64,000 bases of DNA from a virus (IMGVR_UViG_3300037313_001572); one strand, 5' to 3'. Positions 1,873-44,985 are shown, counted from the first letter of the stretch. Numbers and translations are program-made. The notes: generated by a model not told the origin, from the sequence alone.

Positions 1873-1873
1873 A

Positions 1874-2359: not shown

Positions 2360-2390
2360 GCCACCCGAATTTAAGAAAACGGGCTTTCTG

Positions 2391-2732
2391 TCAACGCTGA
2401 TCTGCCGCGTCTTGCTCCTCGGCGGCGACCGCGTCTAGCTCCTTCTTCGTCGCGCTCCGCGTATCCAGTGCCCAACAGAGTATTTTCTCAATCTCGATGC
2501 GCAGCTGCACCGACATGTCTCGCTCGGCGCTGCTCTTTTGTGGATCCAAGGCGTCGCTGGTTACCTGGTTGAGCCGTTTTTCGACGACGGTTTCCAGGAA
2601 AAAAAGGAACGATTCGTTTCCCAGCAGGGAACTGGCGTGGCCGAACAGGACGCGCTGGGCGGCAATCGCTTCAGCCCGCTCCTTGCTGTTTTCGACGCGT
2701 CTATTTACCGGGAGGCTTGGGAGGTTGTTCAT
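2391..2732 (-). CDS. Hypothetical helical protein downstream of portal (113 aa)
   Basis: Overlaps the portal 3' end; helical, charged sequence. Confidence 0.6.
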   Translation of the reverse strand: MNNLPSLPVNRRVENSKERAEAIAAQRVLFGHASSLLGNESFLFFLETVVEKRLNQVTSDALDPQKSSAERDMSVQLRIEIEKILCWALDTRSATKKELDAVAAEEQDAADQR

Positions 2733-4989: not shown

Positions 4990-4992
4990 GGG

Positions 4993-13900: not shown

Positions 13901-16900
13901 AAGCTCTGGATGGTCTTGGTCAGCTTCGAAATGAAAACGGGCTTCTCTTCGTCTGGGTTGGCTGCGAACAGGTCGCCGAATCCCTTTTTTAGCTCGTCGG
14001 CCGCCTGGTCGAATTTGTCGCCCTGCTTTTTGCTGGCGATTTTCTTTTCCCGCTTATTGATGCGTTTCAGTTCGGCGTTTTGATGCGCCAAAATCTCATC
14101 ATCCATCTCTGGACGCGAGGGCTCGAGTTCGCGCTTTTTGTAGCGTCCCAGCTTCTCCTCGATGCCGTTTAGTAATTCGCGCACGTCCTTAGACAGAGTC
14201 CCCAGCTTTTCCCGCAGCCACTTCAAAAGGTTGTCCAGGAACTTGTAGCTGGATTCAGTGAGGTTTTCCGGGCCCTCGAGAAGCACTCGCGCCGCCTCGG
14301 CCGCGCGCTGGAATTCGTTCAGCCCTTCCCATTCCGGACCATAGATTTCACCGGTCTTCTCCATCAGTTCCTTGTCTCCGTTGAGACTGAGCAGCCGTTG
14401 CATGTTGGCCGTGCTTTCCTTGGCGTACTTCACGGTGCCAAGGTGGATAATTTCGTGCGCTACGGCTCGCTTCACCCACTTGGATGCCTCTTCCTTTCCG
14501 AGTTTGGAGACCGCCGCGGCAAATTTCTCTTTGTCGATGACGATACGTCCGCTGTTGGAGTCGGTGATGATTCCGCTTTTTGCCGGCGTCTCTCGGAAAA
14601 TGAATTCGTCCGGGTGCCCAAGGGCATCCAGTTCGGATTTGTGCAGCTTCAGCGCGGCATTGGCCAGTGCTACCGCGTAGTTTTTCTGTCCCTCGGTCGG
14701 TTTTTCCTCTGCCTCTGCCTTGGCCTTTTCAATCGCGGCATTTCGCTCTTTCTCCGTGGAGATTTGTTTCTCCTTCTGGAATTTATCGCGAGTCTCCTGC
14801 AGCTTCGCCTTGGCCTTTTCGGGTGTCAGTTCGGCATCGGACAGTGAGAAGTTTCCGCCGGTCTTTTCGTCTTTGAAAGCGTGCAACCCTTGGTCGCCTT
14901 TACCTTGGTATGTCGCTCCGATTTCCTTGGCGATCGACTCTGGATTGACGTTAGATGAATTTATGGCACTATTCGGCTCATGGGACGCCCTTCCACTGGT
15001 GGACACATCCGCCGATTTCCTCGCCATAATACTTCCTATCGCCTTATAAGCGTCGTCGTTGACGGTGTCAGGCGACAACGGTTTGAACACCGAATTGTTA
15101 TGGAGAAAGCTCTTGGAAGAAAGCTCTCCTCCAAGGAGGTCGTTCACCATCGCGACGGGAATGGACTTAACAACTCCATCGGAAATCTTGAGATCATTTC
15201 CCAGCGGGAGCATGTTCAAATTCACCGGTTCGGACGACTTCGATGGCCGCTGGATGAGGCCATTGAGCTTCGCAAGCAGGGATTTACCATCGCTGCGATT
15301 GCTGCCCGATACAAAGTGACCTACGCCAGCATCCAGCGCGCTTTTAAGCGCAGAGGACTCCTCGGGCGTTACGTGAAGACCGTTCGCATTCGAGACGCTG
15401 CCACCGGAAGGATTCTCGGCAGGAAGACGCTCCCCGCGTGATCTCTGCACGCGAGTCGACATTGCCCACTGCTTGAACATCTCAAGCGAAGGAAATTCCG
15501 CGATGCTATGAATGCCGGGAACCTTCGAGTAATTCGATGCGTAAAGCTCGTGCGCTTCCTTTTTTGATCCTACGCCGATTACGGCCTTCGCCTCGTCGTA
15601 TGTTCCATCCGGTTTATTTTGGTTCACGACAAACACGGGCCCCTTGTAGTCCAAGGGCGTGCCGGGCTTGATGAAGGTATCGATGTGGTCGCCGTCGTTT
15701 CCTTCCGTTCCGCGGATGTAGCCGTAGTGCGCCGTGAGCGGCGGCCACTCCGGGCGCCGACTGCTGCCGGCCGGGTTCTCGATCGAAATATCCATACCGC
15801 CAAGGCGCAGATGCCCCTTGGCGTAGTTTCCGGCCTTCTTTTGCCCCTCGGTGGGGTGCTCGAGTTCGTTCTTGGTCGAGGTTGCGGCTTCGTGCGCCGC
15901 CTGGTCTACGGTTTCTTTCGGCGCCGTGGCGGATGCGCCAGTCGCTCCAGTGGATTGTTGCTGACGTGCTCCGGAAGGCTGCTGGGATCCGGCGTTTCCT
16001 TGGCCCACTTCTCCGCCTTGTCCTTCATTTCCTGCCCCAGTGCTCCCGAGAACGCTGCTCTCATTTGCGCTTTGCTCTTGAACGGCATTACCTGGTCCTT
16101 TCGTTGGTTGCTGGCCTCGAGGTGCCGCCCCCTGTGGCTCCGTAGTGACATTCGTGGGCGGCACCTCTTCTTGGTTTTCTACGGACGGCGATTTACCGAT
16201 GGCCCGAACGATATCGTCATTGTTCAGTCCCAGTTTGGTAAGTTTGTCGGTCGCCTCGGCGTGCGACATCGTTCCGGCCATGACAGCCTTTTGAATTGCC
16301 TCCTTGCCTTCCACTTCTGGCGATGGCGGCTGCTGTTGCGTTCCCGTAGTTTCCGCGGCCGGCCCGCCAACGGCAGGCGTAGTCGGCTCGGGCTGACCTC
16401 CGCCGCCGGACTCTCCCGGATTGGTCTCGATCTTGGCCGTGGTCAACGGAGTTCCTTCGCGCTTCCCAAATTCCGGGATGAATGCCTGCTTGGCGGTGAT
16501 GCCCTTGATGGTCGACGAATCAAATTGGCCGGTGGCCTTCATCTGCTTCGCCTGCTCGCCGATGGCATTGAATACCGCCTGTTCGGTCTTCGAAAGAGGC
16601 GCGGAATTGGTATTGGCCGCCTGGTTGCTGTCCAGACCCATCTTATTGAAGGCCTCGGCTACCTGCTGCGGAGTCAGTTCCGCATCCAATGGTACGCCCA
16701 CCATGTTGCGCATCTGGGCGCGCGTGAACATGCTGGCGATGTCCTGGCTGGAGTAGTCCTTGAACTTGATGTTGTGCCCGGCGGTGATGATGCCGAGTGC
16801 GATGTTCGTCGCCATGCTCTTCAGTGTCGGACTCTGCACCTGGTCATGCTGGATACCCAGCTGATCGGCCAAAGCATTGCTGGCGTAGTCGAACAGCGGG

Positions 16901-18606
16901 CGAATCGCTCCCTCGAATACTGCGCCGCCGGCCGCGCCGCCGGCCGCGATCTTGCCAACCAGCTTCGCCGCCGCGACCGTTCCGCCCACTTGTTTTGCGA
17001 TCTGGGCGGCCTTGTAGACGTTGCTCACCGCTTCCGGCGCGTTGGCGCTCATGCCTACCAGTTCACCGGCCGCATCAAACATCGGATGCAGCTGCGCAGA
17101 CGAGTTGAGGCTCTTGATGGTGTCCGAGTAGTCGGCCAGCTTGTCCAAGGCCTTACGCGCGGCAAAGGCGGCAATGGTGCCCGTGGTCAGGCCGCCAAGT
17201 GCGCCGCCAATGAGTTCCGGTATGCCGGTCTCGCCTGCTCCTGGAATCGCAGCGCCGGCCGCCGCTCCAAGTTTCGCTCCCGGTATGGATCCAGCCCAGA
17301 AAGCCGCTCCAATTCCGCCGCCATGCAGCAAGGCTTTCAACTCCTGCGCGCCGCCGGCGGCCTGCTGCAGGGCTTGATACTTGTCCTGCGCTGCCTGGAA
17401 GTCGGGCAAATGTTGCTGCGCCCACTCCGGAGACACCAGATGATCATTTACGGCCTGACGAAGACCATCCGCCATGTTCTGCGGCTGGAAGTGAACCCCG
17501 CTGGCATCATCGTAGGTGTACGGCTTGTTGCCCGCCCGTGCATCGGTCAAAGCCTTGTTCAGCTGGTCAATTTGCTCCGGAGCAAGCGCCGGACTCGAAC
17601 CGGCCGCACTGGGATTATGAGCCCCAAGCGTATCCTGATCTTGCCCCGGAGGAGGTAGCGCCCCAAAATCTTGCGCGCGACCTACGGCCACGTCCGCGCG
17701 CTGGTGTAAAAGGTTAGACTGCTGGGCGGTCTGCTGGTCGATATGCTGCGACCGCTCGGCAATCAAATCCTTCAGGCTGCTCATCTGGTCGAGCAGCTGA
17801 TGAGCCTTTGCCTTCTGCTGGTCGTAGCCATTGCGCAGAATAGTGGCTTGCGGAGAGAAATCGCCGGATCCAAACCAGCCCGACTTTTCATTCGCCTCTG
17901 GTGCCGCGTAGAGGTCGTTAAAATGGCTGTCGATCGCTTTATGGGCGTCGTCGAGCGAGGTGTCGTCCGGCTGGTTCTGGAGGGACGGCACCATGCCGAA
18001 AAGCCCCTTCTGCATCGCCTTGTATTGAGTCTGGTCGCGATGCAGCTGGCGCTCGTCCACGGTCAGCTGTCGACCGAGGGCCTCGGAGGCATCCTTTACG
18101 GCCTTCTGCTTTTCCTGTTCGAGCGCGGCCGCGGTGGCCTGCTCGTCCTGGCCGAGATATTTCCACCCCAATCCCTTTCGAATTCGGTATTTAGCGCCCG
18201 TGTCTTGATCGATCGTAGTTGGGACATCCTTGAAGGCATCCTCCACGGCCGGCGCGCCGCCATACTCGTTGGGAGTTACCTGCACCGGGTTACCCTGGCT
18301 GTCGTATCCGACATTCGCCGCCTTATTGTAGTGCGAGACCGGTGTTCCGGTCGCGTCTGTTACCGGCTGGACGTTCCCCTTGTCGTCGGTGTAGATCGCA
18401 TTCCCCTGCGCGGCAAGGTCGCGGCCCTTCATCCGGTTTACCGTCTGCTGCGCTTGCTGCTGAACGCGTTGCGTGGATACCTGGCGTTCCTCTGTCTGGA
18501 ACGGGGTTTCGCCGGGAAGCGGAGGATTGGACGCGTAATCGCGCTCCACATCGCCTACTTCACCCGGCACATTGAGCAGCGCGTCGAGTGGGTTGTTCGA
18601 GTCCAT
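4993..18606 (-). CDS. Giant polyvalent virion/ejection protein, DarB-like (4537 aa): Gly/Ala hydrophobic N-region, inorganic-pyrophosphatase-like domain, zincin, N6-adenine MTase, Strawberry-notch SF2 helicase, KOW-like, helical C-terminus
   Basis: GNYAKGH..ISIENPAGS..HYGYIRGTEGNDGDHID (~15465-15910); HEIIH (~14445); VLEPTAGNG (~12030) and NPPF (11860-11871); GDMAGVGKGR (~10845), DESH (~10413), SGSTGISAH and TLGRIFRSGQ (~9100-9240). Confidence 0.85.
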   Translation of the reverse strand: MDSNNPLDALLNVPGEVGDVERDYASNPPLPGETPFQTEERQVSTQRVQQQAQQTVNRMKGRDLAAQGNAIYTDDKGNVQPVTDATGTPVSHYNKAANVGYDSQGNPVQVTPNEYGGAPAVEDAFKDVPTTIDQDTGAKYRIRKGLGWKYLGQDEQATAAALEQEKQKAVKDASEALGRQLTVDERQLHRDQTQYKAMQKGLFGMVPSLQNQPDDTSLDDAHKAIDSHFNDLYAAPEANEKSGWFGSGDFSPQATILRNGYDQQKAKAHQLLDQMSSLKDLIAERSQHIDQQTAQQSNLLHQRADVAVGRAQDFGALPPPGQDQDTLGAHNPSAAGSSPALAPEQIDQLNKALTDARAGNKPYTYDDASGVHFQPQNMADGLRQAVNDHLVSPEWAQQHLPDFQAAQDKYQALQQAAGGAQELKALLHGGGIGAAFWAGSIPGAKLGAAAGAAIPGAGETGIPELIGGALGGLTTGTIAAFAARKALDKLADYSDTIKSLNSSAQLHPMFDAAGELVGMSANAPEAVSNVYKAAQIAKQVGGTVAAAKLVGKIAAGGAAGGAVFEGAIRPLFDYASNALADQLGIQHDQVQSPTLKSMATNIALGIITAGHNIKFKDYSSQDIASMFTRAQMRNMVGVPLDAELTPQQVAEAFNKMGLDSNQAANTNSAPLSKTEQAVFNAIGEQAKQMKATGQFDSSTIKGITAKQAFIPEFGKREGTPLTTAKIETNPGESGGGGQPEPTTPAVGGPAAETTGTQQQPPSPEVEGKEAIQKAVMAGTMSHAEATDKLTKLGLNNDDIVRAIGKSPSVENQEEVPPTNVTTEPQGAAPRGQQPTKGPGNAVQEQSANESSVLGSTGAGNEGQGGEVGQGNAGSQQPSGARQQQSTGATGASATAPKETVDQAAHEAATSTKNELEHPTEGQKKAGNYAKGHLRLGGMDISIENPAGSSRRPEWPPLTAHYGYIRGTEGNDGDHIDTFIKPGTPLDYKGPVFVVNQNKPDGTYDEAKAVIGVGSKKEAHELYASNYSKVPGIHSIAEFPSLEMFKQWAMSTRVQRSRGERLPAENPSGGSVSNANGLHVTPEESSALKSALDAGVGHFVSGSNRSDGKSLLAKLNGLIQRPSKSSEPVNLNMLPLGNDLKISDGVVKSIPVAMVNDLLGGELSSKSFLHNNSVFKPLSPDTVNDDAYKAIGSIMARKSADVSTSGRASHEPNSAINSSNVNPESIAKEIGATYQGKGDQGLHAFKDEKTGGNFSLSDAELTPEKAKAKLQETRDKFQKEKQISTEKERNAAIEKAKAEAEEKPTEGQKNYAVALANAALKLHKSELDALGHPDEFIFRETPAKSGIITDSNSGRIVIDKEKFAAAVSKLGKEEASKWVKRAVAHEIIHLGTVKYAKESTANMQRLLSLNGDKELMEKTGEIYGPEWEGLNEFQRAAEAARVLLEGPENLTESSYKFLDNLLKWLREKLGTLSKDVRELLNGIEEKLGRYKKRELEPSRPEMDDEILAHQNAELKRINKREKKIASKKQGDKFDQAADELKKGFGDLFAANPDEEKPVFISKLTKTIQSLPQSTMTVGQARAAILKGAKPDEIKQQGLLDDPLSPLVGKPDDSRVTKSELTDYSLERQAKVQDVMMGGEQRVLDANGRPMDDGAGGIVTRGTPASFSQYQLPGAEPGSYREQFVTWPSSGLTHAEAQSKLKALVESATKRGRWMDEELKEADRLSKIQVRGNERDSSENWHDGHSQYNDIANPIVRIRRNIREDSQGRRTYFIEEIQGPSAAEQQKMPEPLRKRIYEIGMKRAIRDAIDQGADAIGWTTGEQQTERYDLSNTISKIVASKSSIQNQFHVQAFKKGNDSEPIIHVTDQTPSELEAIVGKELAQKIVAQEGKTQTYSNTDLKVGGEGLKSLYDVMLPRIANKLAEKVGGKVERGQIDKLNPEKMEMGDHLDRAENPDFGKAPIHTMPIPEAWKEQTPQFNLYAANPEAGYTSKLPPERMADAITMAQKLEGLGIKSPEDLATTLGRISEKAKGYSQSFWFFMKGIGADGPSEPDWKSIYEPGELSQPSKKPEKIKPAMGLASVVADALKDGPLNRNDLGKLAAKHPGLTVKQIDEAAEHGVVIRGRMIVEEGRAQNHDAGKVFDRLLELYNRQPNLTAKTSASKINQAYSTPIPLGFLASHLAGVNEKTYVLEPTAGNGALLLEADPAHVLANEIDPTRRAALKAQGFDVSDQDATKPFSGEFTRIVENPPFGVLKGENGQATMFPMAGGGETREIDHAIVLNTLQNLAPNGRASLIIGGSQAIDPNARRQHYASGERGEFFKRLYEQYKVVDHFTVNGDLYKKQGAGWPVDIITIAGKGKSPIQLPNQEPPRILNTWSELRSELNRTDDDRIQAGQYDEGKHRNELGESLAGVRTALAGRRGAGEKRPASQFPAESNSGGGNDESGAASREPAATSSSEGVEQPAERPEGGLGNGAAEHGGSGQRGLVTLEAQSDEEKPQFHKPYVPVSKGTSFGIETPAGIADAQRHALEEIQRKVGKPLAEYAREKMGYKKGYDLSKHFAAEQLDAIASAIHNIETAGALVLGDMAGVGKGRVVAGLIEYAKRNGFLPIFVTKDEALFSAMLGDFHNIGRTVNPLFTNNNLNILHPITDAEIKTRDMNPTMELIAKDGQMPHGHDAVFTSYHQLGKDFAKGETAEERRAAMRAGRLPLPGKRTAALNALVARNRVLFLLDESHLAAGESIQGGRLLKMLENPNARAYYSSATFAKRPDSMPLYFKTNLSKAAGSAKNLMEVFKRGGVVMQQVASQMLAQDGQYIRRERSYDGVPFETRINTDTEERDRKLANEYTRGLRTILDMSNRVKDAVKSMNAIMVRAGKKMDISTIKMEAADFASQIHNFVSQYLFAIKAEAAAQQAIQAIKVGHQTKDGTVKSHKVIVAVQNTMEQPIKGLHQEGLTLEFGSLLVRTLNGLRRVKTRGSESAGTAEYTHIGRKPDPRFKNDSDDNLVAQLIKVETISTDEGPKQIGVVVPEVAAEVFRRIANDAFLDAEAELKQLNLGGMPLSPIDHIRQRVQDEGIKTAEITGRTTGIDKYGAVYEREPEDSTKRGQLAALKDFNNGDTHLLVINQSGSTGISAHSDKTFKNHSPRMMVIAQPHLDINEFTQTLGRIFRSGQVELPRYQLLQTALPAEKRPAAILGKKMASLNANTTSNTDSEVSHGTNVVDVFNEYGDAVVYKYLADNPKFLKDLQYPKIVDKDGKLAPIKDILDDMEEDGKLARNVASYAGLLPVEEQEMFWDDVLNRYTAQIKYLDQIGENKLRAAAADLGAETVSSKVFTPGDPNGKSSFDAPSHMEMVKVKPKQTPLEPAEVMKQAHDIAIRRPKIIADYKKQSSEWVEKYLEKRKEKSISDWATQEQRERERLRNQYAEVWAQLGRLGNPVIINTSNGKKVGAITNVEIDPDAPVTPSKVIFTVANNTLRREMKIPASQMAERLVDMDPDQFDVQYNASREDKAQRVIITGNLIAAYAKLQWRGAVTLYTKSDGSVATGILMPGDYDPNAVERENIRDVGHALDVLRNGQEISSSDGKVRIALKGGKYLLEVPSSKQAGGKFWQDPAVNRAMKNGFEQKGQWMVGEISNLGEVVGIMDRLGATLGYRPNSGTELAAADPSKIKVGDRVNVYKKPGTITSIKGKKMTVSLDEGGVIPAHVDNVTPIPAETPEAKAAAAAKASTNKPAGVSASSIAEDIGRQKEEAKKKLSDVIAGAKAVYGSAKSFFTQLAPVTDYLKAKGEWLGTGALDDPRSTGRQKSDYEVRQMERAINSKFSPAEQEAITNFIQAGGDKSTLQQRAGASSPSLAPGYEAAAKLSGEPLKFVDEVKSFYAAKAKQAQEAGILDDLLTDYVNQMWDRRNDPSYAAQNARNRNLGDVVGPGRLNTRFENAFERIHESYFAGEQKGLKPFTKKIGKLMALWAESFNRVMQNRAFIKLLLHEINATDGRPAATISGYAKPVSDSGGDALLVTPRGKSDETADYVRIENPALRGWKWVHVDPVTGTNTFVKGDILIHPEIAGDLKRTLGKSAIQNTPIIRQLRNLQFAVKQTLLSMSAFHFVQEGTHALGHTINPFHPVQIDINDQTQRELINSGLMIASHEARRDFMEGVAGGGLIDKLPVIGKMNQELNAFLFEDYIPRLKMTMAIEALKRNLARFEDDIKAGKITRQQILFKTAQQSNDAFGEQNYRMMGRSQTFQDILRLGLLAPDFLESRLKFAADATTKYGSEQRRALLILAATMFLTAKLAEKALTGDYDWRHPFSVTYKGREYKLRSVPGDMIDLFADTRRFIYGRISPIISRGIIEGLTGRDWRGQKRSFGEQLGDMLKAPVPIAIRGIIDKRTDINPGEELAGATGLSIKRHSDITETRVAGRDYQVAHGKANPDEVFPPSKYQKLKYALEDGNESKARQAFDELAKQEGRDQVMQGFRKSLLRPFSGGRETEQDFVKGLSQHQRTVYNRATAKQAVMMAMLQRISAAASVTEAPSKPKHIFTGFHS
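11148..11450 (-). CDS. Candidate nested gene in the +1 frame of the giant ORF (100 aa, or 45 aa from ATG 11285)
   Basis: Protein-like acidic helical sequence while the host frame here reads as a G/R/A/E/S-rich shadow; ATG at 11285 is preceded by GGAGGAGGT. Confidence 0.45.
   Translation of the reverse strand: MTTESKQANTTRESIATSLAKALLESEQLWPVVEGLEKNGLHLNFPRNPTVEEVTMSLEQLLENQPQLVPAKEWNSLPSDQRADWGMEQLNTAGAGSGDW
14980..15441 (+). CDS. HNH homing endonuclease (HNH_3-like + C-terminal HTH), nested antisense in the giant ORF
   Basis: EHRIVMEKALGRKLSSKEVVHHRDGNGLNNSIGNL..H motif; C-terminal helix-turn-helix-like LRKQGFTIAAIAARYKVTYASI. Confidence 0.85.
   Translation: MGRPSTGGHIRRFPRHNTSYRLISVVVDGVRRQRFEHRIVMEKALGRKLSSKEVVHHRDGNGLNNSIGNLEIISQREHVQIHRFGRLRWPLDEAIELRKQGFTIAAIAARYKVTYASIQRAFKRRGLLGRYVKTVRIRDAATGRILGRKTLPA
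15906..16088 (-). CDS. Nested 60-aa 'MPFKSKAQ' small phage protein in the +1 frame of the giant ORF
   Basis: MPFKSKAQMRAAF..AEKWAKETP..SLPEHV matches a recurring small phage protein pattern (from recall); AAGGA 7-8 nt upstream of ATG 16088. Confidence 0.6.
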   Translation of the reverse strand: MPFKSKAQMRAAFSGALGQEMKDKAEKWAKETPDPSSLPEHVSNNPLERLAHPPRRRKKP

Positions 18607-18609
18607 TGA

Positions 18610-20133
18610 TTAAACGCCGTCGTTGACGGAGGTGTCCGTGAGCCGCTTTTTGAATTCCGCATCCTGCGGACTGGTGGCGAATCGATCCAATGGGTTCTCC
18701 TGCATCGAGGTAGTTCCCAAGGGAGTCGGCGCCGCGGTGTTCTCGCCAAACAAAATCGTGCCCGGCGATCCATACTCTGGATTCCCCTTGTCCATCTCTT
18801 CCTTCTGCTGCGGTAGACTTTGCGGGGCCGGCTGCGCATTGATCTGCTGCGCGCGCTGCGCGTCGGAGGCATCTTTCTGCTTCGCCTGAAATGCGGCATC
18901 CTGCGCGGCCACATCCGACATTTGTTTCGCCTTTGCCTGCTCTGCTGCTTTCAGCTGATCGGCTCCGGTAATGGGCGGCTCCTGCGCGGCATTCGAGGAT
19001 CCCATCAACTCCGCCGGGTTGATTCCGGCGAAGGGAGATTGAGGAGCGGTCGCATTCGCGGCGGCGGCCGGCGCGGCCGGCATGTCGGACAACGAATCGA
19101 AGAAGGATCCGTGCTGCGGGCTGCTGCTGGCTCCTGTTCCGGCCGATGGGCTTGCGGTTTGGACGTCTGCCGGATGCACAAAACGAACGCCATTCTCGCC
19201 GCCTGGGGTGCCGTATTTCTCCGCGATCTTCGCGCCGCCCATGGTGTCGTAACGAGGATCGTATTCGATTGCCTCGGTCGTGCGACGATCGCCGCCGGGG
19301 GTGCGCGCCGTGCCTTCGCCGGTCTGCAACGTCTTTTGACCGAGCACGCGCTCTCCGCGGTAGTCGAAAGCACCAGCCCCAGTGTCCGTGACTTCGCCGG
19401 TACTCGGCGCCGGGTTTTCCCGAAGCCACTGTGCGCGCTGTTGCGGCGTCCACGTCTGCCATTGTCCGCCGGTACGCGCGTGCATCACCTGATCGAAGGT
19501 AGGAGACACTCCCACCTCTCGGGGCCCGCTGTGGGTTTGCACCGTGGAGACCAGGCCGGCGCCTGTCTGGGTGACGTGCGGATTCATCCCATTGGGAAAA
19601 GGGATGGCATCGACCGCTTTTTCCAGCGGGGTTCGCTCACTTCCAGGAGTGTTCACGGCCGGGGAGCGCAATGGCGTCTGACCCGGAGACGTTCCCGGAA
19701 CCGGGATACCCGTTACCGCTCCTGCCATGGCGTTGCCGGCGTTCTGCACGGCTGCCGATACCTTTCCGGCGGAATTGGTGTTAGGCGTCGCGCTGGTCGC
19801 CTGTGACGAAATTCGGCGTTGTTGCGCCTGGGCAATTCCGTCCATCCGAATGGTGGCATCGGCGATATCCTTGGCGGACATTTCGCCGTGAACTACGGGA
19901 AGAGCGGACTCCATGGCGCCGTTTTTGATGAGATTGGCCCGCTGATTTCGCAAGGCGGCCACCAATTCGGCGCGATGCTGCTCCTGCTGCATCTGGTGTG
20001 CCGCGGCCTTCTCCGTGGCCAGATTGCTCATCACAGTTCCCGCGCTGGGCGGGCCGTAGGGTGCGTAGGGGCGGCTCATGTCTCCCGTATTTGGGAAACC
20101 TTCGTCAAAGTCAAGTGAACGCCGCCAGTCCAA
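18610..20133 (-). CDS. Putative internal virion / ejection protein (507 aa, A/P/Q-rich)
   Basis: Lies between terL and the giant protein; low-complexity composition typical of podovirus core proteins. Confidence 0.55.
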   Translation of the reverse strand: MDWRRSLDFDEGFPNTGDMSRPYAPYGPPSAGTVMSNLATEKAAAHQMQQEQHRAELVAALRNQRANLIKNGAMESALPVVHGEMSAKDIADATIRMDGIAQAQQRRISSQATSATPNTNSAGKVSAAVQNAGNAMAGAVTGIPVPGTSPGQTPLRSPAVNTPGSERTPLEKAVDAIPFPNGMNPHVTQTGAGLVSTVQTHSGPREVGVSPTFDQVMHARTGGQWQTWTPQQRAQWLRENPAPSTGEVTDTGAGAFDYRGERVLGQKTLQTGEGTARTPGGDRRTTEAIEYDPRYDTMGGAKIAEKYGTPGGENGVRFVHPADVQTASPSAGTGASSSPQHGSFFDSLSDMPAAPAAAANATAPQSPFAGINPAELMGSSNAAQEPPITGADQLKAAEQAKAKQMSDVAAQDAAFQAKQKDASDAQRAQQINAQPAPQSLPQQKEEMDKGNPEYGSPGTILFGENTAAPTPLGTTSMQENPLDRFATSPQDAEFKKRLTDTSVNDGV

Positions 20134-22414
20134 GCCCGCTGCGTAAAGAAATGTCGCCTGCGTCGGTATCGGAATGCAGAGAAGTGAAGACCGCCGGCGG
20201 CATGTACATGGTGGCCCGCTCGATATTTGCCAGTCCGATGCCGATACCCATCACCCAATCGTCATGGCACCCGGGCTTCGCTTCTGCGCGGCCGCGGTCG
20301 GTCACGATGAAGGTCTTCAGTTCCACGATTGCCGGCATAAATTCGCAGTCCAAGGCGTCCTCGGAGACGTAATTCGTGATCGCGTTCACCACGATTGGAC
20401 GCGTGTCTTTGTTCGTCTCCCATCCGATGACATTGATTCTCTCGTTGGGGTGGACATTGTCCATCTTCTCGCGCTGGTAGATGCGGCACCCGGCGCGGCG
20501 AAGCTCGTTGAGCATTCCAAGCCCGTTGCCGGTCTCGGGAATAATCTCGCACCCCCCATACCAGTCCAAAAGCATGCGCATGCGCTCCGCATAAAGTGCG
20601 TCGTCCCACCGGCATCCGGTCGGAACATCGATCGCCGCCACGAGGCGCGGCTTTCGCCACCGGCCGCGATCGTCGAAGTAACCTTGCCGCAGGATTCCGC
20701 CAGCGTGCGCGTCTGGGAACAGGCTGCCCTCGCTCTGCTCGCCCTGGCACGGATCCAGGAACGCGATGTAGGAGCAGCCGGCGGCTGGCCGCTCTTTCAC
20801 CCAGAGCCAATTATCCGAGTCTCCTCGAGGCATGAAATTGATGCCGCCGCGCTCGCCCTTCTCGAGTACACCGGTTTCTGCGATTCCGTAGGAAACGCGC
20901 GCCACCTTTTCCCACCGTGAGAGCACGTCGAGATTGAATTTTGGCCGGCCCGACGCAAGGAAGCAGCTTTCGGCGTCTTCCGGGAAATCCTGGTCGAACA
21001 TACGCACATCGTTGGCGCAGTCCTTTTTGATCTTCATGCGGCGCCAGGCGATTTGCTCTGGTGACCAGTTGTAAAGGTCGATACCGCGGCGCTCGCGGTG
21101 GTCAAGATCGGAAGAAAAGTAGTCGGCGTTGTCCGCCGTGCGCGCCAGCTTGTGCTCCGGGAAGTAGAACCAGGCTGCGAAGACCTTGATCCAGCCATTT
21201 CCAACGACACCCTTCTTTCGCTGCTCAAGCGTCACGGCGTCCTGCCACGTCTCGTAGAACCAGCCTGATGCGCCTTCAGCCGTGCTCTCCGCCGCGCAAA
21301 GGGTATTGGGTTTGTCCGGGAGAGAGTTGAGAACGGCGGTGATGACCTTCTTGTCCCGCCCGCTGTTCTTCATGTAGCGGGCCGCCTCGGTCAACCACAC
21401 AATTTGCCGGGTGCCAGAGATACCGGCTTTCGGATCGAGCGCGGTGTCGTGCTCCACGACTGCCTCGCTTCCATCGTCCATCTGGAAAACAATCTTTTCC
21501 GTGTTCGATTTGATGATGGCCGTGTCCCACTGGAAATTATCGTGCTTGGGGATGTCCTGGAACATTTGCCAAACCTTTTCCGTCCGCTTGGCCACGTCCC
21601 CCATCATAATCATGTCGAACTTGAACCGCCGGATGTGGTGATAACATACCGCGGCGCAGTAAGTAGAGCATCCAACCTGGCGCGGCTTCAGGATGATGAG
21701 CCGAATCGGGATGCTATTATCTAGGCAATACTGGTAGGCATCGGAGATTGAGAATTGCAGGATGTTAGGAATCGGAGTTCTCCACACGTGCTCCTTATCC
21801 TCTATCTCCGTGAATCCTGCGAAGTGCACCAGCGGGCTGTTGCGCACCATCTCGATGCCGATTTCCGCAGTCATGTCCGGAATTTTCGGCGCCTCCACCT
21901 CCGGTATATTCATCGAGGGAAATCGCCGGCCGCCTTTGAACTCGTGCCAGTTCTTTCGCATCCATTCATCCAGTCCTTTGCCTGGCCGGTATTGGCAATT
22001 CGTCAAGAGCTCGAATTCATCGGCCGCTTCATCAAAGGAGGCGGCAGTGATTCGATACAGCACCTTGGCAAGAAAGAGAATTGCCAGCGTTGGGGCCCGG
22101 CTTTCTCCCTGGTTGCAGTGGATGAGGATTTTCCGGCCTTCCTCCCACGCGTGCCGCATGAATTCTATGAAGGAGTCGAACATTTCACGCTGAAAGAGCG
22201 GAGTGCTCGGATCGATCATGTTCAAAAACAGGTCGTTCCCCTCGCGATAGGCGAGATAATTTGAGGAGCTCGAGTCGGGCCGGCTGCCACACTTGGAGGC
22301 ATGGCACGGATGCTTGCAAGCATGCACCACGCTCCACTCTGGGTTACCCTCTACGGCTTTGCAGTCCTCGAGCGAGCCGACGTAGAGGTTATCGATTACC
22401 CGGCAACGGGGCAT
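20111..22414 (-). CDS. terL: Terminase large subunit with N-terminal dual-specificity-phosphatase-like domain
   Basis: IILKPRQVGCST (Walker A), VWLTEAA (Walker B), ESTAEG coupling motif, FLDPCQG and HDDWVMG nuclease motifs; N-terminal ~160 aa has NLYVGS..D and ILIHCNQGESRA (CX5R). Confidence 0.9.
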   Translation of the reverse strand: MPRCRVIDNLYVGSLEDCKAVEGNPEWSVVHACKHPCHASKCGSRPDSSSSNYLAYREGNDLFLNMIDPSTPLFQREMFDSFIEFMRHAWEEGRKILIHCNQGESRAPTLAILFLAKVLYRITAASFDEAADEFELLTNCQYRPGKGLDEWMRKNWHEFKGGRRFPSMNIPEVEAPKIPDMTAEIGIEMVRNSPLVHFAGFTEIEDKEHVWRTPIPNILQFSISDAYQYCLDNSIPIRLIILKPRQVGCSTYCAAVCYHHIRRFKFDMIMMGDVAKRTEKVWQMFQDIPKHDNFQWDTAIIKSNTEKIVFQMDDGSEAVVEHDTALDPKAGISGTRQIVWLTEAARYMKNSGRDKKVITAVLNSLPDKPNTLCAAESTAEGASGWFYETWQDAVTLEQRKKGVVGNGWIKVFAAWFYFPEHKLARTADNADYFSSDLDHRERRGIDLYNWSPEQIAWRRMKIKKDCANDVRMFDQDFPEDAESCFLASGRPKFNLDVLSRWEKVARVSYGIAETGVLEKGERGGINFMPRGDSDNWLWVKERPAAGCSYIAFLDPCQGEQSEGSLFPDAHAGGILRQGYFDDRGRWRKPRLVAAIDVPTGCRWDDALYAERMRMLLDWYGGCEIIPETGNGLGMLNELRRAGCRIYQREKMDNVHPNERINVIGWETNKDTRPIVVNAITNYVSEDALDCEFMPAIVELKTFIVTDRGRAEAKPGCHDDWVMGIGIGLANIERATMYMPPAVFTSLHSDTDAGDISLRSGLGLAAFT

Positions 22415-31966: not shown

Positions 31967-33172
31967 TCATTGGATTGAGATGGCTCTGGTGATTCGGTCG
32001 CCGATTAGCCGAATGCAGTTAACCGCGAAGCTATTGCCGTGCGACTTGTAGCGCGGTCCGTCTTTGGCTGGTTTCCCTTTCACGGGAATTGCCGTGTAGT
32101 TGCGCGGAAATCCCTGCAATAACTCTGTCTCCCTTACGGTAAGACGCCTCACCTCGTATCTAGTTTTCCCCTCCTGGCCTGCATGGCATGCATTCCACAA
32201 TAGCCATTCGCGTGATATCGCCTCCCACACGCTGGAACTTTGCAAATTCGCCGCTCGTTCTCCTCCGAGTCCTTCCGAAGAGCCGTGAATTGATTGTCCT
32301 TCACCATGTTCGGATCGCCCCATTTCTTGAACCGCTGGTAATGCATCTCGCAATAACCCAATCCCTTCACTGGCTGCCCGCAGATGGCGCAAGACCTCCT
32401 TACACGATGCGCTCGGATGTGACAGCCACGACAAATACGCTGCAAGTTCGACCGTTCGTTGTTCGTGTGGTTCCCATCCAAATGATGAACGTCTTTCGCG
32501 TTGGGTTTCCCGCATCTCTCGCACGAGCCTTTTGGCACCATCTTCCGCGCATGGTAGTGCGTAACGGACGACTCCAAACTCTTCGATGGTCTGGCATCGA
32601 ATGCCGAAGCCATGCACTGCCGATTGCAGTATTTGCGACGGGAAAAATGAAGCAAGCACTCCAAGTCCCCATTCGGAAAACGCTTCCTCTCCAATTTCGA
32701 ACCGCAGTGCGCGCAGAACTTCAATGGTGTTGGTTTTAGTGGCATGCTCATAGGATTTTTCTTGGTGTGAAATCGCCACATACGAACGTGAGGTATCTGC
32801 CTGCTTGGAGTTTCCACACGAAAGCGTGTTGGCATTATCGTTGCCTTCCTGCACATCGGTTCCGTTGACGTGAATTGCCGTAACGACGCAGTTTCGAACG
32901 CCCTGGTCATTGTTTCCGGCGACCGCCCCGCCAGAGCGATACATGTCCGAGGTGACGGTTTGCGCGACCAGCGGCAGTCCGCGCCCGGTGCCGTCTTCCG
33001 ACGCGTCGAAGCCATCGGCCTTGAGCGTGTGTGCAACGAGGTTCGCATGTGATCCACCGCCAAGACTGGAGTCGCGCAGTGCTTGCGCTACTGGGTCGTC
33101 ATTCCACCATCCATGGCCTGTCTCTTGGAAAGTCCAGGTAGCCTCGTCAAAGAAACCTCCTTGAGGCGTCAC
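31967..33172 (-). CDS. C5-cytosine DNA methyltransferase, C-terminal part (TRD, motifs IX-X) carrying an in-frame HNH-shadow insertion
   Basis: VRRLTVRETELLQGFPRNYT (IX) and RYKSHGNSFAV (X); frame fuses to 33147..34061 if the 14-bp repeat has 1 or 4 copies. Confidence 0.8.
   Translation of the reverse strand: MTPQGGFFDEATWTFQETGHGWWNDDPVAQALRDSSLGGGSHANLVAHTLKADGFDASEDGTGRGLPLVAQTVTSDMYRSGGAVAGNNDQGVRNCVVTAIHVNGTDVQEGNDNANTLSCGNSKQADTSRSYVAISHQEKSYEHATKTNTIEVLRALRFEIGEEAFSEWGLGVLASFFPSQILQSAVHGFGIRCQTIEEFGVVRYALPCAEDGAKRLVREMRETQRERRSSFGWEPHEQRTVELAAYLSWLSHPSASCKEVLRHLRAASEGIGLLRDALPAVQEMGRSEHGEGQSIHGSSEGLGGERAANLQSSSVWEAISREWLLWNACHAGQEGKTRYEVRRLTVRETELLQGFPRNYTAIPVKGKPAKDGPRYKSHGNSFAVNCIRLIGDRITRAISIQ
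32149..32751 (-). CDS. HNH endonuclease with Zn-ribbons, nested in the +1 frame of the MTase
   Basis: CAHCG..KYCNRQC; CERCG..DVHHLDGNHTNNERSNLQRICRGCHIRAH; two CxxxxC..GYCxxH modules; ATG 32751 or 32745. Confidence 0.85.
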   Translation of the reverse strand: MSMPLKPTPLKFCAHCGSKLERKRFPNGDLECLLHFSRRKYCNRQCMASAFDARPSKSLESSVTHYHARKMVPKGSCERCGKPNAKDVHHLDGNHTNNERSNLQRICRGCHIRAHRVRRSCAICGQPVKGLGYCEMHYQRFKKWGDPNMVKDNQFTALRKDSEENERRICKVPACGRRYHANGYCGMHAMQARRGKLDTR

Positions 33173-34061
33173 TATCAGATGCCCCTCTTTCGTGCTGCTG
33201 TCCTGGCCCTTCGCGTCGCGCTCCTGAAGCGCCCACGCTACTTCCGGAATGTCCGCGCTCTGATGTCCGCGCTCTGATGTCCGCGCTCTCTACTGCGACT
33301 ACCGGGTCCTGTCCTCGCGTTTCTCCGGTTCGTTCAACACCCCTGCCACTGCTTGTAAGGCACGGCGCAGACTCGAAGGTAGTTCCTTTCCCCTGGCTTC
33401 GGCGCGGCGGAGAATTCCGGCGCAAGCCTTGGGCGTCAAGAAATAGCGGCGCGCGACTGGACCAGTCTCCAGAATCTCGGACAAGGAACACACGTCGGCG
33501 TCGTTGAGGGACAGCCCGAGGGTGTGATTCCACTCGCACGAACTGTGCATCCAGAGTGAACCACTCGACGAGCCCGCGGCTCCCAAGCGCCACACCGGCA
33601 TTTCGCCAGCCGTCTTCTGGAACGTCGACTTGGCACCCAGCCAGCTCTCCAACCACTGCAGCAAACGCCCGCCCTGCATCGTTGCTGAATAGACCGGGGA
33701 CGTTCTCGGCAATGGCCCATCTGGCTTTTGACCATTCGACGATTCGGCAGGCGACGTAGAAGAGCCCGCTTCGAGTAAGAGATCCATCTGCATGTGTGAG
33801 TCCTTTCTGTTTTCCGGCAACGCTCAAATCCTGGCAGGGGAAGCCGAAGATTACGGCGTCGATGTGGCCGAGAGCTTCGATTTGCTCCCGCGTGATCTTG
33901 GTGACGTCGCCTAGGTTTGGAACGTCTGGATAGTGGTGCCGCAGAACCGCACACGGGAACGGCTCGACCTCTGCCACGGCCACGCATTCCCAGCCGAGTG
34001 GCAGCAGGGCCACGGACGCGGCCTCGATCCCGCTGAAGAGGCTGATAAATTTGAATCTCAC
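33147..34061 (-). CDS. C5-cytosine DNA methyltransferase, N-terminal part (motifs I-VIII), frameshifted
   Basis: SLFSGIE (I), GFPCQD (IV), ENVPG (VI), VPQRRRRVF (VIII). Confidence 0.9.
   Translation of the reverse strand: MRFKFISLFSGIEAASVALLPLGWECVAVAEVEPFPCAVLRHHYPDVPNLGDVTKITREQIEALGHIDAVIFGFPCQDLSVAGKQKGLTHADGSLTRSGLFYVACRIVEWSKARWAIAENVPGLFSNDAGRAFAAVVGELAGCQVDVPEDGWRNAGVALGSRGLVEWFTLDAQFVRVESHPRAVPQRRRRVFLVRDSGDWSSRAPLFLDAQGLRRNSPPRRSQGKGTTFESAPCLTSSGRGVERTGETRGQDPVVAVESADIRARTSERGHSGSSVGASGARREGPGQQHERGASDSDASRRFL
33249..33289. repeat. 14-bp tandem repeat ATGTCCGCGCTCTG x~3
   Basis: Units at 33249, 33263, 33277 (last one 13/14). Confidence 0.95.
33299..33820 (-). CDS. Alternative-frame (+1) polypeptide within the C5 MTase (M.EcoHK31I beta-like)
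   Basis: CSLSEILETGPVARRYFLTPKACAGILRRAEARGKELP..L..AL motif. Confidence 0.6.
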   Translation of the reverse strand: MPENRKDSHMQMDLLLEAGSSTSPAESSNGQKPDGPLPRTSPVYSATMQGGRLLQWLESWLGAKSTFQKTAGEMPVWRLGAAGSSSGSLWMHSSCEWNHTLGLSLNDADVCSLSEILETGPVARRYFLTPKACAGILRRAEARGKELPSSLRRALQAVAGVLNEPEKREDRTR

Positions 34062-42258: not shown

Positions 42259-44985
42259 TCAAATCAAAGTTTGTTGGATGGCGTGTTTTTCTTCCGCGGG
42301 TTTTCCGTATACGATCTTCTGAACGTAGCGGTAGACCGCCGGGTGCTTCTCCTGGACGAGCTTCCAGCTGTTTCGGCAAGCCTGGTCGGCGCCGGATGTC
42401 AGCCAGTCCCAGTAACGCTTCGGAACTTCGTCCAGCGGGACGCCCTGGTGCTTCTTGCCGAAGGTGCACGGGAACTTTGTCCCAAGCGTTCGGATGGCGT
42501 CGTTCATGGTCATCCTCGCCGGATCCTCTACGCCGGCCGCGCGCAGCTGCGCAAAGGCCTGTATCGGCGCCATGCCGTCACGCTGCCGGCCCTCGATCGA
42601 ATCGATGATCTGGCTGGCGTGGCCGGCGCAGGTAATCGACTGGGCCGTAAATCCGTATCGTTCCAGCTTCTCCTTTTGCCAGTGGTTGACCGGCAGCTGT
42701 TCTGACGCGGTGGCCGGCTCGTAGTTGAGCAGGGAGTGGTTTCCGAGCTCGAGCACGATTTCCCGAGCGTCCCGCAGCGATGCCTTGCGCGCCTGGTCCT
42801 TGGCGGCCTTCTCCAACTCCTTGCGGAGTTCCTCTTCCTTGGCGCGCTTCACTTCCTCGCGGATGTCGGCGAGCTCCTCGGCGGAACGCTTCTTTGCCAC
42901 GCGTTTGGCAATCTCCTCTTCCTCCTGCTCGGTATCGGCGATGATGCTGGCCGCGCCCGCCAGCCCGATACGCTCGGTCTGCCAAAGGACATCCAAAATC
43001 AGGCAATTATGGACTAGAAGACCGTTGGCAGTGAAGCGATGAAGTGGTCCGCAGTTGAGAATGTCCCATACACGCCTTTTGGTTTGCGGGATGGGCGATG
43101 ATAGCGGGCCACGATCTGCTGAAAAGTCATCGTGGCGACCATCTTTTCCAGCGTAGAATCTGCATATCGAACCTCCGGGTGCTCCAATCGGAAGCGATGG
43201 AAAAGAGGAGCGTTGGGTGTCCTTCTGGTATGCGACTGATTTTGATGGGCTGTTGACCAGCGAATGTTGCCGGCCTCGTAGTGTCCATCGTTGTTGATGC
43301 GGTCGAGTTGCTTGCCCTTCTCCAGTCCAAGATTCTCCATAACCCACACGCAAGCTTCGTAGGTGCTTGGAAAATTGAAACGAATGCCGCGACCTCCGTA
43401 CCGTTCGTATCCGCTGTCTTTCGGATTCTCGCATCGTTGTTTCTGCGCCATCACACGATTCAATAGCCATTTCGGAACTCGAACTTGGCGCTTGATGGTA
43501 CCACATTTGCGGCAGCCAGATTGGCCATTTAGAAGGGCTCCACGCCAGCGCCATCCCTGCCTGCCGCAGGTTACACATTCCATAAGCATCTGGATGTGAT
43601 TGCCTGGCTGTGCTCTCCGATACGCTGCGGAAATAACCTTCAACCTCCCGAATCGCTCGCCAACCGTCAGCGGTGGAAGCGATGGGCGCGGCTTCCCTCG
43701 CGGCTTCTGCAAAGGTGATCCATCCGTTCTGAGTCCAGACGAGATGCGTGGGGGTAGCTGTGAGACCGGCGTAGGTGATGGTTTCTTGTTCACCCTTGTA
43801 AATTGCCCCATCGTGTTTGCAGTAGCAAGTACCATCCCACACGAGCATTGATTTAGTCACCCGCTCAATGGGAACAAGGCCAATATCCGTGAGAATCATT
43901 GTCCCCTCGGCGATGCAGTCCGGCTTTTCGCTGGCGGCGATGGCGGCCTTGCGCTCCTCCGCCGTGGGCAGCGTCACGCCTCCCGGATCGATCACCCCTG
44001 GCAGCAAGCGCATGATGCGGCCGGCGCGCTGCCGGTATTCGCCGCGGCTGCGGGTGGCCGCCAAGTTGAGCATGCAATCGCAGCGGATGAAGTCTACGCC
44101 GGTCGAAAACACCTGGCTGTTGGAGAGGATTTGAAATTCGCCGTTCTCGAATTGCTCGATTATTTCGTTTCGATTGTCGCTGGCTCCGTCGCAGTGCCGT
44201 GCGGTCAATCCTTCTCGCTGCATCACGGAAACGAATTCCTGGCTGCTCTTGATCAGCGGTAGGAAAGCGAGGATGCGGCGGTTGTTGGCGTATTTCTTGA
44301 TGGCCGCGGCGATGGCCACGTAATGCGGCTCGAGAGCGATCGAAACTTCGTCCTGGTCGAAATCTCCGCTGCGCTGGTGAACCTGGGCCAAATCCACCTC
44401 GAGCGGCATGGTCAGCACTTTTACCGGCGTGATGTATCCTTCCCCGATGAGGTCGAATGTCCCGAGCTCGAAGGCGACCGTCTTGTACCACTTGGACAAG
44501 TCCGCCATGTTCTTCCGAAAAGCCGTGGCGGTGATGCCAAGCACGTTCGCGTCCGGATAGGCGTCGTGGATCTTCTGGCGGCCATCGGTGTTGCGGTGGG
44601 CTTCATCGTCTATTATGACGTCGAATGGCCGGCCACCGGGCAGGCGGCGGGAAAGCGTCTGGATGCTGGCTACGACAACGTCCGCCATCGGGCTGGCCGA
44701 CTGGGTGCCGCGGTGAATCGCAGCGGTGATGCCGCAAGCTTTGTGGAACTTTTCCACGGGCTGCATGATGAGTTCCTCACGATCGCCCACGAACAGGATG
44801 CGTTTCCCCATCTTGCGAAGGGTTTGGCACAGAAACGCGCTGATGATAGTTTTGCCGGCCGAGGTGGCGAGATTGGCCACCGTCTTTTTTGAAGTCGGCC
44901 GCTCGCCGTCCCACCATGGAGCGAATCCGAATTCCCGTAGCACGGCGTCATGCGCCGCTACCTGATAGTCTCGGAGTCCTAGCAT
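42259..44985 (-). CDS. SF2 DEAD/ResIII-like helicase with intein
   Basis: NLATSAGKT, IIDDEAH, GITATAFR, TGVDF, QRAGRIMR, KPD|C..HN|CLILD. Confidence 0.9.
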   Translation of the reverse strand: MLGLRDYQVAAHDAVLREFGFAPWWDGERPTSKKTVANLATSAGKTIISAFLCQTLRKMGKRILFVGDREELIMQPVEKFHKACGITAAIHRGTQSASPMADVVVASIQTLSRRLPGGRPFDVIIDDEAHRNTDGRQKIHDAYPDANVLGITATAFRKNMADLSKWYKTVAFELGTFDLIGEGYITPVKVLTMPLEVDLAQVHQRSGDFDQDEVSIALEPHYVAIAAAIKKYANNRRILAFLPLIKSSQEFVSVMQREGLTARHCDGASDNRNEIIEQFENGEFQILSNSQVFSTGVDFIRCDCMLNLAATRSRGEYRQRAGRIMRLLPGVIDPGGVTLPTAEERKAAIAASEKPDCIAEGTMILTDIGLVPIERVTKSMLVWDGTCYCKHDGAIYKGEQETITYAGLTATPTHLVWTQNGWITFAEAAREAAPIASTADGWRAIREVEGYFRSVSESTARQSHPDAYGMCNLRQAGMALAWSPSKWPIWLPQMWYHQAPSSSSEMAIESCDGAETTMRESERQRIRTVRRSRHSFQFSKHLRSLRVGYGESWTGEGQATRPHQQRWTLRGRQHSLVNSPSKSVAYQKDTQRSSFPSLPIGAPGGSICRFYAGKDGRHDDFSADRGPLSSPIPQTKRRVWDILNCGPLHRFTANGLLVHNCLILDVLWQTERIGLAGAASIIADTEQEEEEIAKRVAKKRSAEELADIREEVKRAKEEELRKELEKAAKDQARKASLRDAREIVLELGNHSLLNYEPATASEQLPVNHWQKEKLERYGFTAQSITCAGHASQIIDSIEGRQRDGMAPIQAFAQLRAAGVEDPARMTMNDAIRTLGTKFPCTFGKKHQGVPLDEVPKRYWDWLTSGADQACRNSWKLVQEKHPAVYRYVQKIVYGKPAEEKHAIQQTLI
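43006..43917 (-). mobile_element. Intein (304 aa) in the helicase; no LAGLIDADG in its own frame
   Basis: Block A CIAEGTMILT, block B TATPTHLVW, blocks F/G RVWDILNCGPLHRFTANGLLVHN, Cys+1. Confidence 0.9.
43014..43811 (-). CDS. HNH homing endonuclease nested in the +1 frame of the intein
   Basis: GERFGRLKV..ECVTCG..GCRKCG..KQRCENPKDSGYERYGGRGI..QLDRINNDGHYEAGNIRW; ATG 43811 (ORF open from 43835). Confidence 0.85.
   Translation of the reverse strand: MGQFTRVNKKPSPTPVSQLPPRISSGLRTDGSPLQKPRGKPRPSLPPLTVGERFGRLKVISAAYRRAQPGNHIQMLMECVTCGRQGWRWRGALLNGQSGCRKCGTIKRQVRVPKWLLNRVMAQKQRCENPKDSGYERYGGRGIRFNFPSTYEACVWVMENLGLEKGKQLDRINNDGHYEAGNIRWSTAHQNQSHTRRTPNAPLFHRFRLEHPEVRYADSTLEKMVATMTFQQIVARYHRPSRKPKGVYGTFSTADHFIASLPTVF

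Follow-up and report, generated by a model that had tools for sequence, protein, structure and literature searches.

An intein in a phage helicase gene with a putative HNH-like nuclease encoded in an overlapping frame

Inteins whose homing nuclease is encoded out of frame with the intein itself were first published in 2025–2026 (bioRxiv 10.1101/2025.01.02.630785; bioRxiv 10.64898/2026.09.14.751524). Here, we describe such an arrangement in a 64,000-nucleotide stretch of viral DNA (IMGVR_UViG_3300037313_001572, hereafter the window), within the gene for a superfamily 2 (SF2) DNA helicase. The helicase is interrupted by a 304-residue intein, and an open reading frame (ORF) for a putative HNH-like homing endonuclease, P0002, overlaps the intein in the +1 frame.

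Gosselin, Arsenault and Gogarten reported actinophage inteins with the nuclease in another frame, being endonuclease VII-like in "frame 3", or antisense and LAGLIDADG or VSR-like. They gave HNH as an in-frame type only, and interpreted the layout as a free-standing nuclease gene that had invaded an intein (bioRxiv 10.1101/2025.01.02.630785). Phillips, DeSimone and Gogarten described a cyanobacterial dnaX intein with an out-of-frame LAGLIDADG nuclease (bioRxiv 10.64898/2026.09.14.751524). The ShiLan domain of Arsenault et al. (Genes 2025) is an insertion in a phage DNA methylase that carries an HNH endonuclease out of frame (PMC11855218). Finally, in the fractured genes of Dassa et al. (2009), the intein is split and a free-standing homing endonuclease gene lies between its halves (PMC2677866). 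The initial annotation of the window had taken it as established that intein endonucleases are normally in-frame domains. This stands as a rule, to which published exceptions now exist (bioRxiv 10.1101/2025.01.02.630785; bioRxiv 10.64898/2026.09.14.751524).

We favor, at a probability of roughly 0.78, the reading that the locus is a mobile element of two genes, a splicing intein and a separately made, out-of-frame nuclease, within an essential replication gene of the phage.

The intein and the gene nested within it

The intein (CIAEG...LLVHN) occupies 43006–43917 on the minus strand, corresponding to precursor residues 357–660, and is followed by a +1 Cys. These boundaries agree with the exact insert relative to intein-less alleles and with the predicted HINT fold. 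All of the class-1 catalytic positions are present, namely C1 (precursor Cys357), T55, H58, H303, N304 and the +1 Cys, and these are invariant in 38 aligned inteins; block B of the window intein reads T55-P-T-H58. Among the relatives, the intein ends in HN in 48 and in SN in 17, and the +1 residue is Cys in 63 and Ser in two.

We used AlphaFold2 (AF2) to explore the structure of the intein. The N-terminal splicing domain (approximately residues 1–95, 43633–43917, minus strand), which contains Cys1 of block A and T55-x-x-H58 of block B, is predicted with a confidence score (pLDDT) of 95–97 over residues 1–85, and the intein frame is constrained across the domain. The C-terminal splicing domain (residues 279–304, 43006–43083, minus strand), comprising blocks F and G (VWDILNCGPLHRF...LLVHN), also has a pLDDT of 95–97 and is 88–96% identical among the closest relatives. 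Between them, residues 98–270 (43108–43626, minus strand) are predicted at a pLDDT of around 40–50, without secondary structure. Thus, this central stretch appears to be a stop-free read-through of the nuclease gene that forms no domain.

Among the best 40 Foldseek matches of the intein model in the PDB, nearly all were mini-inteins, including the RecA, DnaB, DnaE, gp41-1 and DnaX inteins, and the remainder were other HINT domains (Hedgehog, Vint and BIL). These 40 matches had probabilities of 0.94–1.0, a best E-value of 1e-3 and TM-scores, by target, of 0.36–0.55. The E-values are modest because the disordered center was included in the model. Searched against PDB sequences, the intein family profile retrieved inteins and intein-like domains as its sole matches (E 0.0045–0.1). 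We infer from the catalytic residues and the model that the insert is a class-1 intein with a HINT fold, which would be competent to splice.

The nested ORF, P0002, lies at 43014–43835 on the minus strand and encodes 273 residues when taken with its longest N-terminal extension. Its frame opens within the N-terminal domain of the intein, 61 nt past the intein start, and it overlaps block B plus blocks F and G, terminating in G. The TAG stop codon (43014–43016, minus strand) is made of the Leu-Val codons of block G (LLVHN), 8 nt before the last base of the intein. This 8-nt offset is kept in 50 of 65 relatives, and the stop is TAG in 51.

P0002 is certainly a conserved protein-coding gene. It is matched over approximately 90% of its length by 770 database proteins of around 250 residues, with a best E-value of 9e-72 and up to 54% identity, and 25 columns of the 40-sequence family alignment are invariant. 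P0002 also has matches in four PHROG families with HNH or restriction endonuclease annotations, among them phrog_374 (E 1.4e-24), phrog_3377 (E 1e-19) and phrog_2081 (E 1e-8), and the HNH matches cover residues 132–207.

The AF2 model of P0002 has a mean pLDDT of 81, with residues 1–50 poorly predicted. The predicted folded core, residues 56–250 (43086–43670, minus strand), has a pLDDT of around 90 or more over most of its length, and consists of a β-barrel with a Cys4 zinc ribbon, a nuclease core and a helical C-terminal domain. The putative zinc ribbon (43503–43577, minus strand) is formed by C87, C90, C108 and C111. All four are invariant in alignment A1; in alignment A3 this holds for C87, C90 and C111, and C108 is conserved to at least 90%. 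The HNH-like motif, D178-R179...H185...N190...N199 (43239–43304, minus strand), lies in a modeled strand-strand-helix at residues 176–201, with strands at 176–179 and 191–194, a helix at 196–201, and H185 in the hairpin loop. D178, R179 and N190 are invariant, and H185 and N199 are at least 90% conserved.

In libraries of predicted structures, the nuclease model matched phage and cellular proteins named HNH, AP2 or homing endonuclease, with E-values down to 8e-11 in BFVD and 4e-15 in AFDB. A 79-residue HNH entry from AFDB superimposes on residues 132–203 with a TM-score of 0.82. Support for the HNH label comes from the PHROG annotations and from these predicted-structure matches. P0002 is best called HNH-like, with a putative nuclease chemistry.

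For comparison across relatives, we took 80 IMG/VR loci that encode relatives of the nuclease from at least 278 matching contigs, and added two metagenome contigs. In 77 of the 79 complete loci, the N- and C-terminal parts of the intein share one frame, the nuclease is in the +1 frame, and the intein frame is free of stops over the whole intein. In the third frame, these 77 loci have 4–29 stops over the span of the nuclease match. The two remaining loci, L001 (3940–3995) and L078 (2644–3587), have one extra frameshift between blocks A and B, which shifts the part with block A into the nuclease frame. The result in L078 is a 649-codon open frame joining the N-extein, the N-terminal part of the intein and the nuclease. 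The extra frameshift may be decay, an assembly error or a natural fusion variant.

We estimated the number of stops expected in the other frames by synonymous shuffling of each nuclease ORF, leaving both the encoded protein and the codon usage unchanged. In the window, the intein frame contains no stops across the nuclease ORF versus 11.4 expected, and none of 500 shuffles reached zero, whereas the third frame has 8 stops versus 7.8 expected. Over 66 non-redundant copies, the intein frame has no stops versus 713 expected, and the third frame has 831 versus 785 expected.

The codon alignment of the 66 copies indicates which frame is constrained along the element. At P0002 residues ~0–39 and 260–279, the third position of the intein codons is the most variable, and identity is 0.53 and 0.47 in the intein frame versus 0.26 and 0.31 in the nuclease frame. 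Across residues 60–259, the third position of the nuclease codons is the most variable, and identity is 0.11–0.19 in the intein frame versus 0.21–0.44 in the nuclease frame. The three closest copies (window, L084 and L085) are 54–65% identical in the nuclease frame of the center versus 22–31% in the intein frame, while at the ends the intein frame is 61–96% identical. Thus, each protein has a part that shadows the other: the first ~50 residues of the nuclease shadow block B, and the central ~175 residues of the intein shadow the nuclease. The absence of stops is the sole visible constraint on these central ~175 residues. Judged from the sequences, the two-frame layout is genuine and has been maintained by selection.

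Contigs from three sequencing runs in three studies, which may include the source of the window itself, carry a 1.2-kb stretch with no differences and no gaps, one of them at a depth of ~497.

These results bear out the initial annotation in all that it reads from the sequence. The 304-residue intein with intact splicing blocks was recovered at the same coordinates, and its center, proposed to be the shadow of a +1-frame gene, is unconserved in the intein frame and predicted to be disordered. The nested gene, proposed to be complete from block B to block G, starts just before B and ends inside G. A frameshift placing the nuclease in frame, which the annotation had named as a refutation, would need an indel, and the three assemblies have none. 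Its description as an HNH gene holds to the extent that this is a conserved nuclease-family gene with PHROG HNH matches; Pfam and NCBIfam are silent, and an Arg stands at the expected catalytic His.

Relatives, empty sites and mobility

We compared the host helicase to its intein-less relatives. The N-extein (residues 1–356, ending in ...AASEKPD; 43918–44985, minus strand) aligns end to end with intein-less helicases of 598–609 residues at 67–78% identity (P0126, P0128, P0131 and P0132), which are without exactly the 304 residues. These relatives align again directly 3' of the junction, to the C-extein (CLILDVLWQTE... to the stop; 42259–43005, minus strand). Their junctions read KPTALILD, KPSALILD, KPDCLIID or KPDAMILD, in place of KPD-[intein]-CLILD in the window. 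The empty target site of P0126, the closest intein-less relative, was read at the protein level. The helicase of Streptococcus phage Javan85 is also continuous across the insertion site. Of the helicases 64–78% identical to that of the window, most are empty and two (P0127 and P0129) carry the intein and nuclease unit. Such sporadic presence and absence among near relatives is the sequence pattern expected of a homing element.

The unit is found at several locations. In 35 of 65 non-redundant copies it is at the site used in the window, after helicase motif VI; 16 copies are at three or four other helicase sites, and 13 are in family A DNA polymerase genes. In a maximum-likelihood tree of the unit, copies cluster by site and approximately seven changes of site are needed. 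The clade that contains the window (support 99/94) comprises 20 copies, 19 of them at the site of the window, and L077, which is unclassified. Divergence of the nuclease core is correlated with that of the splicing domain (r = 0.64), which fits the inheritance of intein and nuclease as one unit.

The family also includes variants. In L085, one of the two near relatives that carry the unit, the helicase (1501–5106, 72% identity) has the same intein and nuclease plus a second, canonical intein in the DExH motif (IIDDE|C...VVVHN|C), and a free-standing gene matching Pfam HNH_3 (L085 1005–1499) stops 2 nt short of the helicase start. Among the copies in polymerase genes, one subclade (L038, L042, L044, L051 and L057) has shorter inteins of 250–254 residues, and nucleases without the N-terminal zinc-ribbon barrel that keep the core and the +1 overlap. 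Database contigs with nuclease relatives are mostly ~0.9–1.3 kb, near the size of the intein, a length that would fit assemblies being interrupted at the borders of a mobile element that is present in some genomes and absent from others.

Expression, mechanism and competing explanations

Candidate start codons of the nuclease lie at 43710–43835 (minus strand): ATG 43835, ATG 43811, GTG 43793 and TTG 43712. GTG 43793 is common to all three close relatives. Over 66 loci, the Shine-Dalgarno energy of starts upstream of the conserved GxRFG motif averages −7.4 kcal/mol in the nuclease frame versus −4.7 and −2.9 kcal/mol in the other two frames, and −7 kcal/mol or lower is reached by 37 of the 66 in the nuclease frame versus 10 and 3 in the control frames. 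Many copies have an ATG ~8 nt past AAGGG, which is itself formed by the conserved Lys-Gly codons of the intein, and this arrangement argues for internal initiation.

We propose the following mechanism. The helicase mRNA would be translated straight through the 304-residue class-1 intein, whose N-terminal ~95 and C-terminal ~26 residues would fold into the HINT domain. This domain would remove itself together with ~175 residues of disordered, meaningless peptide, joining ...EKPD to CLILD... to give an active helicase of ~604 residues. Read one base later, from an internal start, the same DNA would yield an HNH-like nuclease of ~230–270 residues, with a zinc-ribbon β-barrel, nuclease core and helical tail, as a separate protein. 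The nuclease would presumably cut intein-less helicase alleles near KP(D)|(C)LILD, and repair would copy in the whole unit. The sequence would be set by the nuclease in the center and by the intein at the ends, with the intein frame kept open in the center only through the choice of synonymous codons for the nuclease. The initial annotation had likewise proposed a composite element, in which splicing removes the shadow and a separate HNH protein provides homing. The 77 of 79 loci, the frame-specific constraint and the intein-less alleles of close relatives support this model, in which we infer the splicing, the independent translation of the nuclease, and its activity and target.

Several observations weigh against the two-gene reading. 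None of the candidate starts in the window has a strong, well-spaced Shine-Dalgarno sequence, and the best, for TTG 43712, reaches −5.7 kcal/mol, similar to the control frames. The window and L085 are without the ATG that most relatives have ~41 codons before the GxRFG motif. A scan for sigma-70-like promoters found none upstream of the nuclease ORF and two matches inside the intein, downstream of the start region, and none of the RNA runs searched for the stretch contains it. Decayed copies are under-sampled, since the loci were gathered by nuclease similarity.

The nuclease assignment also has points against it. Pfam and NCBIfam have no family for the nuclease, and only one of 40 members touches HNH_3 (E 0.19). 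Foldseek of the model against the PDB gave nothing below E 0.7. The best solved structure for the nuclease core, by VIA-align, is PacI, which is weak at Z 3.5; the VIA-align listings are dominated by the SH3/Tudor-like N-terminal barrel. We take the canonical catalytic His of HNH enzymes to be at the end of the first strand, a placement that follows the canonical motif and not an alignment to a solved enzyme. By this assignment, from the secondary structure of the model, the invariant R179 is at the position of the His. In addition, hhalign of the family against the Pfam-recognized HNH_3 protein from L085 gave no alignment, and the family profile and phmmer of the core against PDB sequences retrieved nothing relevant.

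Expression of the nuclease is the weakest link of the case, and for the phage of the window it is presumed because the ORF is intact and conserved. The nuclease ORF could instead be a silent or non-functional relic here, making the insert effectively a mini-intein with a long junk linker, carried since the intein frame must stay open. The atypical start region, the lack of an upstream promoter-like site, the RNA runs and the catalytic His that is not evident would all suit a relic. However, own-frame stops should pile up in a relic, while the ORF is uninterrupted over its 273 codons and retains all of the residues that are invariant in the family, and its frame is the conserved one in the center even in the closest relatives. 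We therefore regard a relic as unlikely, although it is the most serious of the alternatives. Programmed +1 ribosomal frameshifting, which would produce a fusion of the N-extein, the N-terminal part of the intein and the nuclease, would do without the internal ribosome-binding site that is not clear in the window. A shift anywhere from 61 nt past the intein start would enter the open nuclease frame, and L001 and L078 have the N-terminal part of the intein in that frame. Yet L001 has a stop between the two parts, most relatives have a nuclease-frame ATG with a good Shine-Dalgarno sequence, and database homologs are called as free-standing proteins of ~250 residues. The nuclease frame opens at variable distances from the intein start, between 28 and 184 nt, and no slippery site was seen by eye in the window and five relatives, where no motif search was made. 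Frameshifting thus seems improbable.

Two further explanations concern the insert as a whole, and both were rejected. An insert that stays in the helicase as a tolerated, non-splicing loop has a precedent in the out-of-frame HNH of the ShiLan insertion in phage methylases (PMC11855218). Pfam intein and Hint models score below threshold on the window helicase protein, and NCBIfam intein_Cterm gives E 0.32, under its cut-off, which also weighs against our reading. Against such a loop are the catalytic residues from C1 to the +1 Cys, all present and invariant, the confident HINT model that matches solved mini-inteins, the PDB profile matches to inteins and intein-like domains alone, and the strong intein-frame constraint at the ends, so that we consider it very improbable. 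Even less credible is a sequencing or assembly artefact, in which the nuclease is truly an in-frame intein domain displaced by indel errors. We found no support for this, beyond the single extra frameshifts of L001 and L078, which may reflect errors or decay. An artefact would require two compensating indels in the window, and the same pair in 77 independent contigs, and it is contradicted by the identical assemblies from three studies and by the overwhelming avoidance of stops in the intein frame.

Genomic setting, implications and relation to described systems

The host gene (42259–44985, minus strand) encodes a 908-residue SF2 DNA helicase precursor, with N-extein, intein and C-extein in a single open frame. 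Pfam identifies ResIII (E 2e-20) and Helicase_C (E 9e-15) in this ORF, which also matches PHROG 16, "DNA helicase" (E 9e-62). The 64-kb window represents a phage genome recovered by assembly of soil or rhizosphere metagenomes, with a terminase, methyltransferases and a 4537-residue ORF. A blastn search of the gene against 50,697 phage records returned no match.

Elsewhere in the window, a second HNH-annotated ORF (PHROG 1271, E 3.7e-21; 32152–33063, minus strand) lies out of frame inside a DNA methyltransferase ORF (31970–33172, minus strand). This methyltransferase is split in two ORFs, 33150–34061 and 31970–33172. A 153-residue ORF (14980–15438, plus strand) matches ten PHROG HNH endonuclease families (best E 1.2e-16), and is antisense within the 4537-residue ORF (4993–18606, minus strand), which is open across it. 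In a 767-residue ORF (20114–22414, minus strand), a terminase PHROG match (E 4e-11) is confined to the last ~120 residues.

We tentatively suggest that the overlap could be a stable strategy and not a transient stage. Because the nuclease ORF extends across blocks B, F and G and, in 50 of 65 copies, takes its stop from block G codons, most deletions or frameshifts that kill the nuclease would also destroy splicing of an essential helicase or polymerase. If true, this entanglement would protect the nuclease from the phase of decay that is normally part of the homing cycle. Such shielding would explain a lineage at ~40% identity, spread over helicase and polymerase genes, in which nearly every sampled copy is intact in both frames.

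A two-frame unit of intein and nuclease can be abundant, with at least 278 viral contigs and 770 protein clusters here, as well as old (~40% identity across the family) and able to change target genes. Inteins with an overlooked out-of-frame nuclease can pass for decaying inteins or mini-inteins. Gene callers give the helicase ORF alone in L084 and L085, missing the nuclease, and in L001 the nuclease is called and the host gene truncated. The family offers a large natural data set on how homing nucleases join inteins, and on dual coding maintained by synonymous codon choice alone. The splicing domain appears to tolerate ~175 residues of arbitrary disordered insert, which would be useful for intein engineering, and the nuclease may offer new cleavage specificities.

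The principle of an out-of-frame intein nuclease is no longer new, and comparison with the described systems indicates what the window shares with each. It resembles the actinophage inteins of Gosselin et al. in having a contiguous intein, a nuclease out of frame on the same strand, a structureless in-frame center and a sporadic distribution in phage genes. Their same-strand nucleases are endonuclease VII-like and in frame 3, whereas that of the window is an HNH-like zinc-ribbon protein in frame +1. Their hosts are the TerL, DNA polymerase, minor capsid and thymidylate synthase genes of actinophages, whereas here they are the SF2 helicase and family A polymerase genes of environmental phages. 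Their paper treats such inteins as rare, while the present family has at least 278 viral-contig members.

The dnaX intein of Phillips et al. shares the disordered in-frame center, frame-dependent purifying selection and Shine-Dalgarno motifs before the nuclease ORF, but has a LAGLIDADG nuclease in a +2 ORF, a cellular host gene and a single insertion site. Like the window, ShiLan has an HNH-type nuclease in another frame of an open host ORF, with a stop within the last bases of the insertion. However, no splicing domain is detectable in the ShiLan insertion, which is believed to stay in the protein, whereas the nuclease of the window is flanked by intein blocks with a predicted HINT fold. In inteins with an HNH-type nuclease domain (1997), the nuclease is part of the intein polypeptide, whereas that of the window is in another frame and would be another polypeptide.

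Fractured genes are similar in that an intein is joined in a single mobile unit with a nuclease gene that is translated separately, again in genes of DNA metabolism, and this likeness supports the model of nuclease genes invading mini-inteins. They differ in that the host is in two ORFs and splicing is in trans, whereas the host ORF of the window is continuous because the intein frame is kept free of stops across the nuclease gene. The element in the window appears to work like the published out-of-frame systems. What is probably a true intein is here paired with an HNH-like gene in another frame, the host genes are different, and the overlap extends into blocks B, F and G.

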